From an uncultured Sphingomonas sp. (lineage in GTDB: Bacteria > Pseudomonadota > Alphaproteobacteria > Sphingomonadales > Sphingomonadaceae), in the NCBI GenBank assembly GCA_965727025.1, contig CBFRWL010000001.1:1-39189 (forward strand): DNA of 39,189 bases, read 5' to 3'. Position 1 is the stretch's first letter. Every line of letters begins with the position of its first letter. The notes below the pieces were generated by a model. It was not told the DNA's origin. It made no database searches and was given only the letters and a program-made list of their open reading frames with translations. Positions 9,630 through 25,780 of the stretch are shown here, one piece after another. The position numbers and the translations under genes were made by a program.

Positions 9630-10868
9630 TTACACGGGCCAGGCCAGTTGCAACTCCAGAACCCCGTTGACCATTCCCGTCGCCAGCACCGGGGTGGTGC
9701 CCGGCGCGATTTCGAACTCGGGGATACGGGTCAGCCATTCTTCCAGGAAGATGCGCAGCTCGCGCCGCGCCAGCACCGCGCCGGGGCAGGTGTGCGGGCC
9801 GTTGCCGAAGGTCGCGTGACGGATCGGGAAGGGCCGCGAGAAATCGACGGTGGTGGGATCCTTAATCTTGCGCTCGTCCATGCCGACCAGCAGGTTGGGC
9901 GGCAGGATCATGTCGCCTGCCTTAAAAGGCACACCCTTATAGTCGAGGTCACGCGCGATATAGCGCGCGGTGTTGGCGATGCCGTGGCGGCGCAGCAGTT
10001 CCTCCAGCGCGTTGCGCATGAAGGGCTCGTCGTTAAGGCGGGACGCCAGTTCCCGCCGGTGATCCGGGTTCATCGCCAGGAAGCGGGCGACAAAACCCAG
10101 CATGCCGGCCACCGTGTCGAGACCGCCGAAAAGCACCAGGGTCGCGAAGCTGATCGCATTGTCCAGCGGCATCTCGTGCCCGTCGACCGGCGCGCTGACC
10201 AGCTTGCTGATCAGGTCCTGGCCGGGGTTTTCGCGCCGGGCGATCACCGTCTGGGCGAGATATTCGCCGACCTTGCGATGCGCAGCGCCGCGTATCTCGG
10301 CCGTGCGACCACGCACCGAATCTTCGGCGATCGGCAGCAGATAGGCGCGATCCTCGCGCGGCAGATCGACCATGTCGAGGAAAACGACGATCGGCAACAC
10401 CTTGGCGAAATCAGCGATGAATTCGCAGCCACCCTTGTCGCGCAGGCCCTCGATCAGAGAGACGGTGACGTCGCGCACCTTGCTCTCCAGCGTGTTGACC
10501 ACCTTAGGCAGCAGCGCCTGCATCAGTGGCCGTCGATAGGCGCCATGCTCCGGCGGATCGAGCTCCAGCGGAATCTGGCGCGGGGTGCCCTCGGGCATGC
10601 GCGGCAACACGATCTTGCGATGCGAAAAATACTCATGATCACGCTGCATCGCCTCAATGTCCTCGGCGCGCGTCGCGACCCAGTGACCGCCGTTGCGCGG
10701 CGTCCAGAAGATATCCGGCGCTGCCTGCTGCACCGCCCGGTAGGCGAGCTGGATGTCGTCATTGGAGCCCGGAACGTCGTACATATCGAAATCATAGACC
10801 AGCGCATCCGGCACATGATCCGGCTTCGGCGCCAGCGGGCTTATGTTGGCCGCGTCCATTTCCATCAT
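9630..10868 (-). CDS. cytochrome P450, CYP101 (P450cam)-like
   Basis: LAPKPDHVPDALVYDFDMY N-terminus (compare P450cam LAPLPPHVPEHLVFDFDMY), I-helix FGGLDTV acid-alcohol pair, heme loop FGNGPHTCPGAVLARRE. The start is ambiguous among ATGs at 10868, 10865 and 10859. GAGGAG spacing favours 10859. Confidence 0.9.
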   Translation of the reverse strand: MMEMDAANISPLAPKPDHVPDALVYDFDMYDVPGSNDDIQLAYRAVQQAAPDIFWTPRNGGHWVATRAEDIEAMQRDHEYFSHRKIVLPRMPEGTPRQIPLELDPPEHGAYRRPLMQALLPKVVNTLESKVRDVTVSLIEGLRDKGGCEFIADFAKVLPIVVFLDMVDLPREDRAYLLPIAEDSVRGRTAEIRGAAHRKVGEYLAQTVIARRENPGQDLISKLVSAPVDGHEMPLDNAISFATLVLFGGLDTVAGMLGFVARFLAMNPDHRRELASRLNDEPFMRNALEELLRRHGIANTARYIARDLDYKGVPFKAGDMILPPNLLVGMDERKIKDPTTVDFSRPFPIRHATFGNGPHTCPGAVLARRELRIFLEEWLTRIPEFEIAPGTTPVLATGMVNGVLELQLAWPV

Positions 10869-10872
10869 CTCC

Positions 10873-12093
10873 TCAGGCCGGCCACTTCAGCGGCAGTGCC
10901 AGAATGCCATTGACCATGCCCGTCGCCATCACGGTCGGTCGGCCAGCGTCGATCGCAAAGTCCGGGATGCGCGGCAGCCACTCTTCCAGGAAGATGCGGA
11001 GCTCGCGGCGTGCCAGCACCGCGCCCGGGCAGGTGTGCACGCCGTTGCCGAAGATGGCGTGCGGTACCGGGAAGGGGCGCTCGAAATCCACCTTGAGCGG
11101 ATCAGCCACGCGACGTTCGTCCAACCCGAACAGCATGTTGGGCGGCAGGATCATGTCCCCTTCCCTGAAGACGACCCCTCTATAGACGAAGTCTTGCGCG
11201 ATGTAGCGCGCGGTGTTGGATATCCCGTGGCGGCGCAGCAGCTCTTCCAGCGCCGTCTTCATGAACCCCTCGTCGTCGAGCCGCTCGCGGATCTGGCGGC
11301 GATGCTCGGGGTTCATCGCCAAGAAACGCGTGACGAAGCCGAGCATGCCGGCCACCGTATCCAGCCCACCGAACAGCACCAGCGTCGAGAAGCTGACAGC
11401 GTCCTCCAGCCCCATCTTCGCGCCGTCGACTGGCGCGTTGATGAGCTGGCTGAGCAGATCGCTGCCGGGCTTTTCCCGCCGCGCAATCACCGTGTCGCGT
11501 AGATAAGCGTTGATTTTGCGATGAGCCGAGCCACGCTGCTCCACCGTCCGGCCGCGCACCGAATCTTCGACGATCGGCAGCAGATAGTGCCGGTCCTCGC
11601 GCGGCAGATCGACCATGTCGAGGAAAACGACGATCGGCAGGATCTGGGCGAACTCCCCGATGAAGTCGCACTCACCGCGATCGACCAGCCCATCGATCAG
11701 CGAGCGTGTGACCTCGCGTACCTTACTTTCCAGCGGAGCGATCGCCTTGGGTAGCAACGCCTGCATGAGCGGGCGTCGGAATGGCGCATGCTCGGGCGGA
11801 TCTAGCTCCAGCGGGATTTGTCGATAACCGTCGGGCATGCGCGGCAGCGTGATCTTACGGTTCGAGAAGCGCGCATAATCGCGCTGCATCACCTCGATGT
11901 CCTCGGCGCGGGTGGCAACCCAGTGGCCGCTGTTGCGCGGGGTCCAGAAGATGTCGGGCGCCGCCTGCTGCACTGCGCGATAGGCGAGCTGGATATCCTC
12001 GTCGGAGCCCGGAAGATTGTAGAAATCGAAATCATAGACCAGCGCGTCCGGCACGTGATCCGGCTTCGGCGCCAGCGCGGTCGTCTCGCTCAT
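10873..12093 (-). CDS. cytochrome P450, CYP101 (P450cam)-like; tandem paralogue of 9630..10868
   Basis: Track ORF 10873..12129 trimmed to the ATG at 12093 (MSETTALAPKPDHVPDALVYDFDFY). GGAGAGGGAG lies immediately upstream and the start is 10 nt after the upstream SDR stop. Motifs FGGLDTV and FGNGVHTCPGAVLARRE. Confidence 0.9.
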   Translation of the reverse strand: MSETTALAPKPDHVPDALVYDFDFYNLPGSDEDIQLAYRAVQQAAPDIFWTPRNSGHWVATRAEDIEVMQRDYARFSNRKITLPRMPDGYRQIPLELDPPEHAPFRRPLMQALLPKAIAPLESKVREVTRSLIDGLVDRGECDFIGEFAQILPIVVFLDMVDLPREDRHYLLPIVEDSVRGRTVEQRGSAHRKINAYLRDTVIARREKPGSDLLSQLINAPVDGAKMGLEDAVSFSTLVLFGGLDTVAGMLGFVTRFLAMNPEHRRQIRERLDDEGFMKTALEELLRRHGISNTARYIAQDFVYRGVVFREGDMILPPNMLFGLDERRVADPLKVDFERPFPVPHAIFGNGVHTCPGAVLARRELRIFLEEWLPRIPDFAIDAGRPTVMATGMVNGILALPLKWPA

Positions 12094-12103
12094 CTCCCTC
12101 TCC

Positions 12104-12874
12104 TCAGAGCGCGGTATAGCCGCCGCCATCGACGAACAGTGTCTGCCCCGTGATATAGCCGCACAGCGACGAGCACAGCGCCACGATCACGCCGCCGATG
12201 TCGCTGCGTCCGTTACCCATGCGGCGCATCGGCACGCTCGCCTCGATCATCTCGCGCACGCCTGGGTTCGCCTCGAAATAGACGAGCGTCGCGTCGGACA
12301 TCGAGGCCGGGGCCAAAGCGTTGACGGTGATGCCGTGGCGCCCCCATTCCCGCGCCAGCGACTTGCTGAGGCCACGGATCGCGCCCTTTTGCGCTGCATA
12401 GACCGGGTTGGCACCGCTGCCCTTGATACCGCGCAGCGAGGTGAAAAACACCATCCGCCCCTCCCCGCTCGCCTTCAGGTGCGGGAAGGCGGCACGGGCG
12501 AGATAGAAGGCGCCGTCGAGCGAGACCGCGCCATGCTCGCGCATTAGATCGACCGATTGCTCCTCGACTGTCTGACTCATCGCCGAGCCGCCATGGACGG
12601 CGTTTTGAATGAGGATGTCGAGACGCCCGAAGCGCTCGACCGTCGCCGTCACTGCCGTCTCGACCGCCGCCTTGTCGGACACGTCGAGCGCGAGTGCGAG
12701 CGCCGCGCCGCCCTCCGCCGTGATCGCGTCGGCGGTCTTCTGCGCGGCCTCGATCCGGCGCGCCGTCACCACCACGGAGGCACCCGCCGCCGCCAGTGCG
12801 AGCGAACTTCCCCGGCCGATGCCGGTGCCGCCGGCGCCCGTCACGAACGCCACCTTTCCTTTCAGCAGGCTCAT
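12104..12874 (-). CDS. short-chain dehydrogenase/reductase (classical, apparently catalytically complete)
   Basis: GKVAFVTGAGGTGIGRGSSLA, NAVHGG, PVYAAQKGAIRGLSK (YxxxK), FVDGG. Its ATG overlaps the stop of the upstream SDR-like gene (ATGA at 12871-12874). Confidence 0.9.
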   Translation of the reverse strand: MSLLKGKVAFVTGAGGTGIGRGSSLALAAAGASVVVTARRIEAAQKTADAITAEGGAALALALDVSDKAAVETAVTATVERFGRLDILIQNAVHGGSAMSQTVEEQSVDLMREHGAVSLDGAFYLARAAFPHLKASGEGRMVFFTSLRGIKGSGANPVYAAQKGAIRGLSKSLAREWGRHGITVNALAPASMSDATLVYFEANPGVREMIEASVPMRRMGNGRSDIGGVIVALCSSLCGYITGQTLFVDGGGYTAL

Positions 12875-13512
12875 GGCAGCATCAGCTCCCCACCATCCAG
12901 CACCAGCGATTGTCCGATGATCCCCTTCGCCCGGGGATCGGCCAGCAGGGAGAGCAGCGCCATAAGCTGGCCGACGTCGGCCGCGCTCCCGGTCGCCAGG
13001 GGATCGGGATCCTGCGACTTCGGCAGTTCAGCGCCTTGCAACTCGGGCGCGAACAGCAGGGTGTCGATCGCGATCCAGGTAAAGCGGAAGCCGCGCTTGC
13101 CCATCTGGCGCGCAGCGGATTTCATTAGCGCCCGCTGGCCCTCCGCCACGGCCGCGAGCAACGACAACCCGTCGCTGCCCGACAGCGCCATGCTTGGCCC
13201 CGCGAACACGACCGGCGGCGGATCGACCTGGTAGCGCGCGCTCAACGCGTGCAATGTCGAGAGCATCAGTTCGAGCGGCCGATCGACCCCCTCGCACCAC
13301 TGCGTGTCGCTGAGCGCTTCAAACGGCTGCGGGCGCAAAGCCTCGTCCGGGCAGCCGACGAACAGGATCAGGTTCACGCCGCGGCGCGTGGCCTCTGCCA
13401 CCGCCTCGCCGGGATCATCGCGTCCGATGTCGATCAGTGGCGCGTCGAGCCCCTTGGCGAGCCGCGCCGCAGGCGCGCCGATGCCGAGCACCAGCATGTT
13501 CGTCCTTTCCAT
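12871..13512 (-). CDS. degenerate SDR-fold protein lacking the cofactor and catalytic motifs; putative non-catalytic partner subunit
   Basis: 213 aa, colinear with the SDR fold: MLVLGIGAPAA in place of TGxxxGxG, ILFVGCPD in place of NNAG, AAVAEGQRALMKSAARQMGKRGFRFTWIAID in place of YxxxK...IrvNaIaPG, and a C-terminal GQSLVLDGG. The start may be Met6. Confidence 0.7.
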   Translation of the reverse strand: MERTNMLVLGIGAPAARLAKGLDAPLIDIGRDDPGEAVAEATRRGVNLILFVGCPDEALRPQPFEALSDTQWCEGVDRPLELMLSTLHALSARYQVDPPPVVFAGPSMALSGSDGLSLLAAVAEGQRALMKSAARQMGKRGFRFTWIAIDTLLFAPELQGAELPKSQDPDPLATGSAADVGQLMALLSLLADPRAKGIIGQSLVLDGGELMLP

Positions 13513-13606: not shown

Positions 13607-14650
13607 CCGCACGCTCGCGCCGCCCTAGAGAATAGGAAAATCACATCATGGCTCAGGATCCAGGCATGCCCACCATTCCCCGCTTGCTCGCCGAAGCCGC
13701 CGCGCGCTGGAAGGGCAAGCCGGCGCTCGTCGCGCATGACGGAACCACCAGTTTCGCGGAGCTCGACGCGCACGCGACCGAAGTGGCCCGCGCCTTCCTC
13801 GCCGCCGGGTTGCAAAAGGGCGAGCGGGTGGCGCTGTGGGCACCAAATATGTGGGAATGGGTCGCGGTCGCAGTCGGCGCGCAGCGGATCGGCGGCGTGC
13901 TGGTGCCGCTCAATACCCGCCTGCGCGGTGGCGAAGTGGCCGATGTGGTGCGCCGCGCCGACGCGCGTTTCCTCATTTCGGTCGGCGATTTCCTCGGCCG
14001 CTATTATCCTGACATGCTCCGCGATCAGGTGATGCCAAACCTGCGCAGGACGATTGTGCTGCGCGGTGCGAAGAATGGCCACGAAAGCTATGAAAGCTTC
14101 CTGCGGCTGGCGACGCAGGCCGATGAAGCCGTCTTCGCTGAGCGTGTCGCCGACGTCAGCGAATATGACATCGCCGACATCATGTTCACCTCCGGCACGA
14201 CGGGCGCGCCCAAGGGGGCCATGTTCGATCATCGCCGCTCGATCGGTGGCGGCCGCGCCTGGCAATATATCGCTCGGCTCAATGCGGAGGACCGTTATTG
14301 CTGCTTCGGACCCTTTTCGCACAATGCCTCCTACAAGGCGGGCTGGGTCGCGGGGCTGCTGACCGGCGCCTCGATCTACTGGCCGGAAGCCTATGACGGC
14401 GCCTCGATCCTGTCCTTGATCGCCGATAACAAGATCACTGTGATGCCCGCCCCGCCGACCGTCTGGTTGGAAGCGCATGCCCATCCCAACCGGAAGGACT
14501 GGGATACGTCCAGCCTGCGCTACATCAGTACCGGCTCCACCACCGTGCCGATCGAGTTGATGCGCCGGCTGAAGGCGGACATGAACATCCCCGTCGTCTC
14601 GACCGGCTATGGCATGACCGAATGCTGCGGCTCCGCCACCCACACGCGGG

Positions 14651-14688
14651 ACGGCGACGATGTCGAACGGCTATTCTATACGGTCGGG
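14651..14688 (+). repeat. direct repeat copy 1 (38 nt; 41 nt if the preceding GGG is included)
   Basis: ACGGCGACGATGTCGAACGGCTATTCTATACGGTCGGG. Identical to 14790-14827 except A14673 versus G14812. Confidence 0.95.
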
Positions 14689-14789
14689 GGGGGGGGGGCG
14701 GGGGCCCCGGGGCGCGGGGGGGGGCGGGGCGGGCCGGCGGGGGCGGGGGGGGGGGGCCGGGGGGGGGGGGGGGCGCCCCCGGCGGGGGG
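14689..14789 (+). other. G/C-only filler tract, strongly G-skewed on the + strand
   Basis: There is no A or T from 14686 to 14789 (104 nt; I count 82 G and 22 C). G runs of 13, 9, 12 and 15 occur. This composition is unlike anything else in the window. Confidence 0.95.
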
Positions 14790-14827
14790 ACGGCGACGAT
14801 GTCGAACGGCTGTTCTATACGGTCGGG
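14790..14827 (+). repeat. direct repeat copy 2
   Basis: ACGGCGACGATGTCGAACGGCTGTTCTATACGGTCGGG, 139 nt downstream of copy 1. Confidence 0.95.
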
Positions 14828-15348
14828 TGCCCGCTGCCGGGCACCGAGATCAAGGTGGTCGGCCAGGACGGCCATGAGATGCCGGTGGGCGAGGCCGGCG
14901 AGGTGCTGATCCGCGACGACAAGCTGCTGATCGAATATCTCGACAATCCCGAGGCGACACGCTCGACGATCGATGCCGACGGCTGGCTGCACAGCGGCGA
15001 TATCGGTGCGATGACATCCGACGGATATCTGCGCATCACCGATCGCCTCAAGGATATGTATATCGTCGGCGGCTTCAACGTATATCCGGCCGAAATTGAG
15101 CGGCAGATGAGCGAGCTACCCGGCCTGCATTACTGCTCGATCGTCGGCATTCCGGACCAGCGGCTGGGCGAAGTGGGGCACGCCTTTATCGTGCGCGCCG
15201 CCGGCTCGACGCTGACGGAGGAAGAGGTGATCGCCTGGAGCAAGCAGAACCTCGCCAACTACAAGGTGCCGCGCGGCGTCACCTTCGTCGACGAGCTGCC
15301 GATGAATTCGTCAGGCAAGGTGCTCAAGTTCAAGCTCAAGGAACTGGT

Positions 15349-16113
15349 CTGACCCGCACCGCGCTCGTCACGGGGGCGGCGTCCGGCATCGGCGCGGCCA
15401 TCGCCGCGCGACTGCGTGCGAGCGGCCGGCGGGTCATAGGGGCGGATCTGGCCGGTGTCGAGATATCGGCGGATCTCGCCACTGAAGCGGGACGTGCTAG
15501 GCTGCGCGACGAAACGCAGCGTCTGGCCGGGAGACATATCGACGAGCTCTATGCCTGCGCCGGCGTGCTCGATCGTGGGCAAGACACGCTCTCGGTCAAC
15601 TATTTCGGCGCGGTCACGACCCTGGTCTCACTGCATCCCCTTCTACAGGGCGGGGAAGCGCCGCGTGCCGTCGCGATCGGTTCGGTCGCCGCCTACAACC
15701 CGCCCGACGAGCCGTTGATCGCCCTTCTGCTGGCGGGCGACGAAGCCGCCGCCCGCGCCGCTGCCGCGGAGAAGGACGGCCTGACCCTCTATTCCGCCAC
15801 CAAGATCGCGCTCTCGCGCTGGTGCCGTGCGACGGCAATCACGCCGGAATGGGCCGGTGCGGGCATCCTGCTCAACATCGTCGGGCCCGGACTGGTCGAG
15901 ACTGGCCTCAACCGCGAGACGTTTACCGATCCAGATCGACGCCGACGCGTCGCCAAGATGATGCCCTGCCCGCTCGGCCGCCATGCCCAGCCGGACGAGA
16001 TTGCGACGCTGGCGGCATATCTTGGTTCGCCGGAGAACAGCTTCGTCGTCGGTCAGGTGATCTATTGCGACGGCGGACAGGAAGCCTTCCAGCGCGGCGC
16101 GGAACGTCTGTAG
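15349..16113 (+). CDS. SDR resembling 3alpha-hydroxysteroid dehydrogenase/carbonyl reductase (Comamonas testosteroni HsdA type); apparent CTG start
   Basis: The track shows only 15565..16113, but the frame is open upstream. It encodes (L)TRTALVTGAASGIGAAIAARLRASGRRVIGADLAGVEISADLATEAGR...LSVNYFGAV...YSATKIAL...GPGLVETG. This is colinear with my recollection of HsdA (VISGCATGIGAAT...VIADLSTAEGR...VSVNYFGAT...YAGSKNAL). There is no in-frame ATG, GTG or TTG before 15565. CTG at 15349 has AAGGA 6 nt upstream and overlaps the ligase stop (CTGA). Confidence 0.65.
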   Translation: MTRTALVTGAASGIGAAIAARLRASGRRVIGADLAGVEISADLATEAGRARLRDETQRLAGRHIDELYACAGVLDRGQDTLSVNYFGAVTTLVSLHPLLQGGEAPRAVAIGSVAAYNPPDEPLIALLLAGDEAAARAAAAEKDGLTLYSATKIALSRWCRATAITPEWAGAGILLNIVGPGLVETGLNRETFTDPDRRRRVAKMMPCPLGRHAQPDEIATLAAYLGSPENSFVVGQVIYCDGGQEAFQRGAERL

Positions 16114-21223: not shown

Positions 21224-22546
21224 TCAACGGTCCGCCTGGATATATCGCCAGAGCGTGTCGTGGAAGTTGCTGACCGCCTTCTCCTGCACTGGATTGGTGC
21301 GCGCACCCTTGAAGCCGCGCGATTTCATGCCGGCCTGCACCTCGCTCATATTCTGGAAGTCCTGGCTGAGGATCAGCCCCCAATCGACATCGCGCCAGTC
21401 TTCGGCTGACTCGACCTCCACCCTGGGTACCTGCCCTTCAGCGAAACGCTCCAGCACATAGACCTCGAAAATGCAGCGATCGGGATCGTCGCCGTGCGGC
21501 CGCGCGCGATAGCCGAGCAGATTGGTCGGCTGCGGCAGGAACACCATGTTGGGGAAAATGTGCCAATCAATGCCGACCGCCATCACCTGTTCCGGCGTCA
21601 CGTCCGGGCTGCCGATGCCCTTCTTCTCAAGCTCCTCGCGATGGAAGCGCATAAACGCACCATAAACCTCCGAAATGGGAGTGTCCTCGGGCAGTTCGGA
21701 AAGTCGGCGGCCAGCCTCCATCAGCTCCTCGGTGGTGGTGGCGCGCAGCGTTTCCCAAACCTCGCGGTTGAATTCGTAAAGGCCCTTGCGCAGATCACCC
21801 GCAGGGCCGCCGAGACGCGGACTGGAGAGGCCGAACAGCGCGTCCGCGGGGGCACCGAACATGCCGTGCTTGCCGTACGCCTTGCTGTAGGTCATGTCGT
21901 TGAAGTTGGGCAGCAGCTGCCGATGCGTCGTCTGGACGTGATAGCCCTCGTTGAAGGCCTCCAGCGCGACCTTCCAGTTGCAATCCATCTTCACGCGCTT
22001 GCGCCACTTGTAGCGCATCTTCTCGAACTCGAAGGGATCGAGCACGGCCTTGGCGGGCTCAAGATATTCCTCAAGGCTCTCGGCCTCCGGGTCCATGTTG
22101 ATGAACACCCAGCCACCCCAGGTGCCGACTCTCACCGAAGCGAGCGTGATCTCCTCGTCGGGCAGGCGATCGCCCCAGTCCTGCCGGTCGACTATCTCCA
22201 CGGGCCGGCCGTCGAGATCCCATTGCCAGCCGTGAAACTTGCAATGGAACTTGCCCATCCGTCCACAGCCCGACGTCAGCCTGCGACCGCGATGGGGGCA
22301 GACATTGTGGTAGGCGGCGATGGTGCCGTCCTGCTTGCGCACCACGGTAATCGATTCGTCGCAGATCTCGTAGGATACATAGTCGCCGGCGTTGGAGATC
22401 TCCTCTTCACGGCAGGCCCATTGCCAGACGTAAGGCCAGAGCTTCTTCTTCTCGGCTTGCGCAAAATCGCGCGAGATATAAGCGTCGGCGGGGACGAAAT
22501 CCTCGCGCACGGGCGATATGACTGGCGCCTTGCTCGGATAGTTCAT
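21224..22546 (-). CDS. Rieske [2Fe-2S] non-haem-iron oxygenase, alpha (catalytic) subunit
   Basis: 440 aa. Rieske motif CPHRGRRLTSGCGRMGKFHCKFHGW (CxH-x17-CxxH). Mononuclear iron motif EAFNEGYHVQTTH. No beta subunit or reductase gene is nearby. Confidence 0.9.
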   Translation of the reverse strand: MNYPSKAPVISPVREDFVPADAYISRDFAQAEKKKLWPYVWQWACREEEISNAGDYVSYEICDESITVVRKQDGTIAAYHNVCPHRGRRLTSGCGRMGKFHCKFHGWQWDLDGRPVEIVDRQDWGDRLPDEEITLASVRVGTWGGWVFINMDPEAESLEEYLEPAKAVLDPFEFEKMRYKWRKRVKMDCNWKVALEAFNEGYHVQTTHRQLLPNFNDMTYSKAYGKHGMFGAPADALFGLSSPRLGGPAGDLRKGLYEFNREVWETLRATTTEELMEAGRRLSELPEDTPISEVYGAFMRFHREELEKKGIGSPDVTPEQVMAVGIDWHIFPNMVFLPQPTNLLGYRARPHGDDPDRCIFEVYVLERFAEGQVPRVEVESAEDWRDVDWGLILSQDFQNMSEVQAGMKSRGFKGARTNPVQEKAVSNFHDTLWRYIQADR

Positions 22547-24431: not shown

Positions 24432-25757
24432 TCAGTTCTTCTCGTTGATATAGTGGTGCAGGGTCTCGTGGAAGTTGCTGATCGCGCGTTCCTTGACCGG
24501 ATTGGTGCGCGCCGCGGTGAAGCTGCGGACCCGCATGCCGCGCTGCACCTCCTCCATGTTCTGGAAGTCCTGTTCCAGGATCAGGCCCCAGTCCACGTCG
24601 CGCCAGCTGTCTGCGACCTCGACCTCGGCCCTCGGCGGCTCGACCCCGTCGGGGAAGCGTTCCAGCGCATAGACCTCAAAGATGCAGCGGTTGGGATCGT
24701 CGCCATCCGGCCGCGCGCGATAGCCGAGCAGGTTGGTCGGCTGGTGCAGGAACACCATATTGGGGAAGATGTGCCAGTCGGTGCCGGCCGCCATCTGCTG
24801 CTCGGGCGTGACGGATGGCCAACTGATGCCGCGCTTGGCGGTCTCCTCGCGATGGAAGGTCGCGAAGGCCGTATAGACCTCCATCATCGACGCGTCCTCG
24901 GGCAGCTCGGTCAGGCGGTCGCCCGCGGCCAGCATCTCCCGCGTGGTGGTCGCCCTCAACGTGTCCCAGATGTTCCGGTTGAAGTCGCGAAGGCCTTTGC
25001 GCAGGTCACCCTTCTGTTCGCCAATGCGTGGCGCCGGCAGGCCGAACAACGCCGTCGGCGCGAAGCCGAACATGCCGTGCTTGCCGTACGCCTTCGAATA
25101 GGTGACGTCGTCATGGTAGGCCAGCAACTGGCGATGCGTCGTCTGGACGTGATAGCCTTCGTCGAACGCCTCAAGGCCCGTCTTCCAGTTGCAGGGCAGC
25201 TTTATCTGCTTGCGCCACACGTAGCGCATCTTCTCGAACTCGAAGCCGTCGAGCATTGACTTGGCGGGTTCAAGGAACTCCTCGAGGCTCTCGCTGTCCG
25301 GGTCCATGTTGATGAACACCCAGCCGCCCCAGCGGCCGACCTTCACGGGCGTGAGCGAGACTTCGCGGTCCTGCAGCCCGTTCGCCCAGTCATCGCGGTC
25401 GACGATCTCGACAGGTGTCCCATGCAGATCGAACTGCCAGCCGTGAAACTTGCAATGGAACTTGCCCTGCCGGCCGTAACCTTCGGTCAGCCGGCGGCCG
25501 CGATGCGGGCAGGCATTGAAATAGGCTCCGATCGAGCCGTCCTGCCGGCGTATGACGCTGATCGAATCGTCGAGTATGTCATAGGTGTAGAAGTCACCGG
25601 GATTGGGGATCTCCTCTTCCCGGCAGACCCATTGCCATACCTTGGGCCAGAGCTTCTCGCGCTCCAGCTCCAGCCAGTCGCGCGAGATATAGACGTCGAC
25701 CGGCACATAGTCCGGCCGGACCTCCTGCGGGCCCGAGCGGTGGACCTTGGCCGCCAT
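24432..25757 (-). CDS. Rieske [2Fe-2S] non-haem-iron oxygenase alpha subunit; paralogue of 21224..22546
   Basis: Track ORF 24432..26333 trimmed to the ATG at 25757 (MAAKVHRSGPQEVRPDYVPVDVYISRDW), with AAGGAGAG upstream. Motifs CPHRGRRLTEGYGRQGKFHCKFHGW and EAFDEGYHVQTTH. The stop is 3 nt from the KstD-like start. Confidence 0.9.
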   Translation of the reverse strand: MAAKVHRSGPQEVRPDYVPVDVYISRDWLELEREKLWPKVWQWVCREEEIPNPGDFYTYDILDDSISVIRRQDGSIGAYFNACPHRGRRLTEGYGRQGKFHCKFHGWQFDLHGTPVEIVDRDDWANGLQDREVSLTPVKVGRWGGWVFINMDPDSESLEEFLEPAKSMLDGFEFEKMRYVWRKQIKLPCNWKTGLEAFDEGYHVQTTHRQLLAYHDDVTYSKAYGKHGMFGFAPTALFGLPAPRIGEQKGDLRKGLRDFNRNIWDTLRATTTREMLAAGDRLTELPEDASMMEVYTAFATFHREETAKRGISWPSVTPEQQMAAGTDWHIFPNMVFLHQPTNLLGYRARPDGDDPNRCIFEVYALERFPDGVEPPRAEVEVADSWRDVDWGLILEQDFQNMEEVQRGMRVRSFTAARTNPVKERAISNFHETLHHYINEKN

Positions 25758-25780
25758 CTTCTCTCTCCTTTCTTCGCCGA

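Follow-up and report, generated by a model that had tools for sequence, protein, structure and literature searches.

RESULTS

An interrupted ligase gene in a catabolic cluster

The window analyzed here is the whole of the 39,189-nt, metagenome-derived contig CBFRWL010000001.1 (assembly GCA_965727025.1) from an uncultured Sphingomonas sp., and the features of its interrupted acyl-CoA ligase locus are listed in Table 1. In the neighborhood of the ligase are genes for a 3-ketosteroid delta-1-dehydrogenase (KstD), two Rieske oxygenases, P450s, acyl-CoA dehydrogenases, enoyl-CoA hydratases, and several short-chain dehydrogenases/reductases (SDRs), with KstD scoring 823 bits, over its cut-off of 789. 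The 3' part of the ligase reads in a frame offset by +1 from that of the 5' part, solely through 139 extra nucleotides. In the deposited record for the contig, the ligase is present only as a 157-aa C-terminal fragment (P0130, MPVGEAG..., starting at 14879).

An earlier note, made from the sequence of the window, had claimed that deleting 139 nt restores a 1566-nt (521-aa) ligase ORF and that this is the only acyl-CoA ligase in the window. Both claims were reproduced. Removing either repeat copy together with the filler gave the identical 1566-nt ORF, and since 139 equals 3 x 46 + 1, the tract shifts the frame. A tblastn search of the window with the restored protein returned no paralogue, and its Pfam and gene tables hold no other AMP-binding ligase.

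Table 1. Features of the ligase locus, in window coordinates
Feature	Position	Strand	Remarks
FadD3-like acyl-CoA ligase, 5' part (codons 1-347)	13648..14688	+	tblastn places residues 1-346 at 13648-14685, 100%; ends with repeat copy 1
Repeat copy 1	14648..14688	+	41 nt; minority allele A at 14673; probable tip of the left contig
Filler	14689..14786	+	98 nt without A or T; probable poly-G-like junk from assembly or gap filling
Repeat copy 2	14787..14827	+	41 nt; majority allele G at 14812; probable start of the right contig
Ligase 3' part, remainder	14828..15352	+	whole 3' part runs from 14787; TGA at 15350-15352; tblastn places residues 335-521 at 14789-15349, 100%
Downstream SDR	15349..16113	+	frame opens at a CTG overlapping the ligase stop (cTGA); outside the probable artifact

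The best NCBIfam match of the restored protein is the FadD3 family acyl-CoA ligase model (NF005801), at 589.4 bits and with a wide lead over other families; the curated cut-off lies higher, at 657 bits, and the protein thus falls short of membership in the equivalog. AMP-binding and AMP-binding_C domains (PF00501 and PF13193) were found on P0001, which is 99% identical, so that the domain architecture and the steroid-catabolism neighborhood by which the FadD3 family is recognized are both present. A homologue at 89% identity, from a Sphingomicrobium MAG, is annotated as "FadD3 family acyl-CoA ligase," and homologues at ~66% are annotated as "HIP---CoA ligase." Compared with the conspecific genes described below, the restored gene differs at 7 to 15 synonymous and 2 to 4 nonsynonymous codons and contains no further lesion. 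By this codon comparison, the restored ligase gene is free of signs of decay.

The genes around the ligase gave several observations of their own. The Rossmann motif of the downstream SDR, TGAASGIG, lies 6 codons past CTG 15349, and no in-frame ATG, GTG, or TTG occurs before GTG 15565; the SDR is therefore called as a 182-aa protein on all conspecific contigs, without its cofactor-binding N terminus. Because the NCBIfam alignment begins at residue 3, that N terminus is real coding sequence, and the arrangement suggests that the SDR may be initiated at CTG or coupled to the ligase through termination-reinitiation. In the two sister species (89% and 83% protein identity), this SDR does not follow the ligase. 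Two tandem P450 paralogues at 9630-12129 on the minus strand share 76 to 84% nucleotide identity, and two Rieske oxygenase paralogues, also on the minus strand (21224-22546 and ~24432-25760), share 73 to 76%, with the KstD gene between them; both pairs are recent duplications inside the catabolic cluster. A 213-aa ORF at 12871-13512 on the minus strand, divergent from the ligase, is kept in all relatives, including the sister species. This ORF matched no family in Pfam or NCBIfam at the thresholds applied, and its counterpart in L087 had a weak match to adh_short_C2 only.

A G/C-only tract between two copies of a 41-nt repeat

From 14686 to 14789, the window runs for 104 nt without an A or a T (82 G and 22 C), or for 105 nt when C14685 is counted, and the next longest such run in the 39-kb window is 18 nt. 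The G runs of the tract, of 13, 9, 12, and 15 nt, are the only homopolymers of at least 7 nt in the whole 39 kb. A recount of bases and G runs agreed in full with the figures in the earlier note. At 65% GC, chance alone would give ~4e-16 A/T-free runs of 105 nt or longer in 39 kb, and the imbalance of G over C within the tract has a P value of ~3e-9. No G/C-only run in 1.37 Mb of related loci is longer than 40 nt, the maximum seen there.

The tract is bracketed by a direct repeat whose copies are spaced 139 nt apart and differ only at A14673 / G14812. Here the earlier note was right about the two copies, their spacing, and the single mismatch, but its repeat length of 38 nt was too short: a GGG at 14648-14650 and 14787-14789 matches as well, for a total of 41 nt. 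Translation bore out its further statements that the copies encode the same peptide, DGDDVERLFYTVG, in different frames and that the mismatch is a synonymous change from CTA to CTG, both Leu. Counted strictly between the 41-mers, the filler is 98 nt long, and with the boundary Gs counted it reaches up to 104 nt, a range that brackets 100. It consists of 76 G and 22 C (78% G), with the plus strand G-rich from end to end. The window contains 0 Ns; called bases occupy the position where a gap would lie.

Orthologous loci in other assemblies

Members of the ligase protein cluster were retrieved by exact look-up, yielding 12 independent conspecific contigs that span the site (L069 to L079 and L083). 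Their sources are JGI samples 3300001979, 3300025933, and 3300001990 plus eight ENA assemblies, and both SPAdes (NODE_) and MEGAHIT (k141) contigs are among them. They are 98.5 to 99.2% identical to the window on both flanks. Every one of them has a single 41-mer, lacks the G tract, and encodes an intact ligase of 521 aa, or 515 aa as called. The 5' part of the window's ligase is collinear with their intact 521-aa genes up to 14688, and all 12 alignments end at 14688 and restart at 14787, using the subject's one 41-mer twice.

More distant relatives have the same structure. Sister species L086 (89% protein identity) and L087 (83%) align across the restored junction free of gaps, as does the more distant Rhizorhabdus locus L014. 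The earlier note had proposed an alignment of orthologous ligase loci as a check on its interpretation; in that alignment, the 12 conspecific and 2 sister-species loci are uninterrupted at the site. The 90%-identity protein cluster of the restored ligase has 53 members, the full-length ones being 515 to 521 aa, and a scan of GTDB representative genomes with the restored ligase gave a top match of 70% identity, so the species of the window is absent from the representatives scanned.

Searches for the interrupted structure itself were negative. The left junction was found in no JGI metagenome contig except for one unrelated chance match in L082, an AT-rich contig with no BLAST similarity to the window. 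Neither the left nor the right junction occurs in the related loci compared, the right junction having been searched in those loci only, and the window, the compared loci, and the JGI metagenome scan held no second copy of the insert. Exact look-up of the broken products (230 aa from 14660, 409 aa from 13648, and 403 aa from 13666) returned no record, and the N-terminal product with its poly-Gly tail is found on no other contig by the same method. As these broken products have no exact match, no second contig carrying the tract appears to be on record. The restored protein, in its 521- and 515-aa forms, likewise had no exact match in a collection of 15 billion proteins, and the exact strain of the window therefore appears to be unassembled elsewhere. 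Exact look-up of a neighboring TauD-like protein led to 3 further contigs at ~99% identity, with none at 100%, and the window strain carries private alleles on both flanks of the tract (for example, at 13612, 14105, 14121, and 15178).

Two of the conspecific contigs showed additional features. By extrapolation of the alignment offsets, L071 (ENA ERZ27321126, NODE_126_length_39067; SPAdes) spans from ~14 nt before the start of the window to ~1 nt past its end and is thus an independent assembly with nearly the same ends as the window contig, minus the 139 nt. Both contigs probably end at the same repeat or strain-variable boundaries. In L079 (JGI 3300001990), an older contig, small indels near window position 15390, in the SDR N-terminal region, set this contig apart from the window and from every other contig; they probably represent a separate assembly error in another record.

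The mismatch between the copies is a population polymorphism

The site at which the two copies differ segregates among the 12 conspecific contigs: L071, L072, L078, and L083 have A, and the other 8 have G. No other position varies within the 41-mer or in the 40 nt on each flank. This is what would be expected from the earlier note's proposal that the two contig ends came from slightly different alleles, as A14673 / G14812 is a synonymous SNP of the same population; ends derived from two co-occurring strains would account directly for the mismatch.

Over the ligase, the haplotypes most similar to that of the window are L077 and L074, and both have G. It is suggestive at best, with only 12 haplotypes to compare, that the A of copy 1 may be foreign to its flanks. 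A haplotype switch at the junction was also considered and set aside: no clear switch is visible, and private alleles lie on either side.

Breaks near this position recur in other assemblies. Two 1.7-kb contigs from different samples, L080 (JGI 3300005564) and L081 (JGI 3300005457), both begin at 14879, directly past the strain SNPs at 14875 and 14878. Judged by these contig ends, this ligase region is evidently a recurrent assembly break point in this strain-mixed population.

DISCUSSION

A probable assembly artifact built from two strain alleles

The comparison with independent assemblies points strongly to the interpretation that the earlier note had favored. Very probably, the tract is an artifact of assembly or gap filling, in which the overlapping ends of two contigs carrying different strain alleles were left unmerged with poly-G-like junk between them. 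The same genomic segment lies on both sides of the filler, and removing one copy together with the filler returns the structure of the references. The one difference between the copies corresponds to two alleles present together in the sampled population, and 12 of 12 independent contigs from that population that span the site are without the tract, with the repeat in one copy and the gene intact. Because all relatives show this state, the real genome is expected to have one 41-mer and an intact 521-aa FadD3-like ligase.

A series of ordinary assembly steps could produce what is seen. The assembly graph would have broken within the ligase gene at the A/G strain polymorphism now represented by positions 14673 and 14812, with the left piece ending on the minority A allele and the right piece starting 41 nt upstream of that end with the majority G allele. 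If the overlap of 35 to 41 nt was then missed, the pieces would have been ordered with a small positive gap rather than merged, and the gap of ~100 nt may have been filled from the left, only on the plus strand, with poly-G-like sequence of low information. Such extension in one direction fits the G-richness of the plus strand from end to end of the filler. Most likely, this filler would derive from read tails that had lost their signal on a two-colour Illumina instrument, on which the absence of signal is called as G and weak one-channel noise could be called as C; alternatively, an N placeholder may have been filled or converted. Plain conversion of a 100-N gap to G as the sole cause is ruled out by the 22 Cs in the filler. 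A scaffolding or gap-filling step is assumed, as a lone dark-cycle read does not explain how poly-G rejoins real sequence. Both the order of these events and the source of the filler are what we infer from the finished contig.

A second kind of artifact deserves mention, namely a chimera at the library or read level, formed, for example, from a single chimeric or tailed fragment or a low-complexity basecalling error in a long read and taken in by the assembler. Such a chimera would also place G/C junk between two stretches of real sequence, the second restarting slightly upstream, and if its halves came from different strains the SNP would be accounted for. We consider this highly unlikely, as a path built from one molecule would have to beat a well-covered intact path, and most short-read assemblers remove low-coverage paths. 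The structure is also too long for a single short read, since 41 + 98 + 41 nt makes 180 nt, plus anchors, against a read length of 150 nt. Comparison alone does not separate this chimera from unmerged contig ends, and the tract would in either case be an artifact.

It is extremely unlikely that the tract is a real, strain-private insertion, made up of a 41-nt tandem duplication and ~98 nt of untemplated G-rich filler, that recently knocked out the ligase. The window haplotype has private alleles and is unsampled elsewhere, leaving the state of the site in this strain without an independent record, and a duplication with filler is a conceivable repair scar, such as might follow aberrant repair of a break. 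Against this, neither the 12 conspecific contigs nor the two sister species have the insertion, the gene is free of decay, and the stretch is the sole homopolymer-rich one in 39 kb, with no equal in 1.37 Mb of related DNA. The repeat itself is a further difficulty: a fresh duplication should be identical, and the lone difference between the copies coincides with the population A/G SNP, where a later random mutation would hit this site and this base in ~1 of 123 cases. Nor are we aware of a bacterial process by which ~100 nt of G/C-only sequence would be added. Were the tract real, it would be an insertion of a kind without precedent, a G-quadruplex-dense scar left by some repair or tailing activity in one rhizosphere sphingomonad strain, and a steroid-type catabolic cluster would lose its CoA-activation step; nothing that we found supports this.

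A phase-variable contingency tract, slipping reversibly to switch the ligase on and off, would resemble the known homopolymeric contingency loci in its long, frame-shifting G runs within coding sequence (here 9 to 15 nt), but it can be given almost no credence, because the relatives, including the 12 conspecific contigs, have neither a long nor a short nor an in-frame G tract at this site, because the tract is an irregular mixture of G and C rather than a homopolymer or a short-unit repeat, and because the 41-nt duplication that flanks it is not a product of slippage.

Consequences for pathway reconstruction

With unmerged strain alleles as the preferred explanation, the main import of the tract concerns data quality: an intact and conserved ligase would have been made to look like a frameshifted pseudogene. 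Because only the 157-aa C-terminal fragment is on record for the contig, a pathway reconstruction of this genome bin would wrongly report that the CoA-activation step has been lost. The combination seen here, a G/C-only run flanked by near-identical direct repeat copies that differ at a strain SNP, is also a simple signature for which metagenome assemblies could be screened automatically.

Comparison with known systems

By family match, homologue names, and catabolic neighbors, the restored protein resembles FadD3, the HIP-CoA ligase of bacterial steroid ring C/D degradation. It differs in scoring under the equivalog cut-off, and it is best described as FadD3-like by sequence.

An insert between direct copies of its target recalls a mobile element with a target-site duplication. 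This candidate was rejected: the insert is G/C-only, with no ORF and no terminal inverted repeats, and the duplication, at 41 nt, is imperfect (1 mismatch).

The filler itself is closest to the poly-G tails of two-colour Illumina instruments (NextSeq/NovaSeq), with which it shares the dominance of G, the absence of A and T, an irregular composition, and restriction to one strand. G-dominated sequence is the signature of persistent signal loss in two-colour chemistry (PMC13218037). The window tract has the corresponding properties, being G-dominated and of low complexity on the read strand, with no genuine template to be seen, in that the filler has no homologue in the relatives. It differs from a read tail in lying mid-contig between real sequences, where assembly or gap filling must have incorporated it, and in its 22 Cs, which need a residual one-channel signal or another source. 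In the literature on poly-G inside assembled contigs, the read-level artifact has been described (PMC13218037), and we found no paper on this assembly signature.

The arrangement as a whole is closest to that of unmerged contig ends at a scaffold gap, by convention a placeholder of ~100 nt, in strain-mixed metagenome assemblies. The window differs from the usual placeholder in having called bases in place of Ns, presumably introduced by a gap-filler, a polisher, or an encoding step. The likeness lies in flanks that overlap by 35 to 41 nt and differ at one strain SNP, a filler of 98 to 104 nt, and breaks next to nearby SNPs in other assemblies, where L080 and L081 start at 14879.
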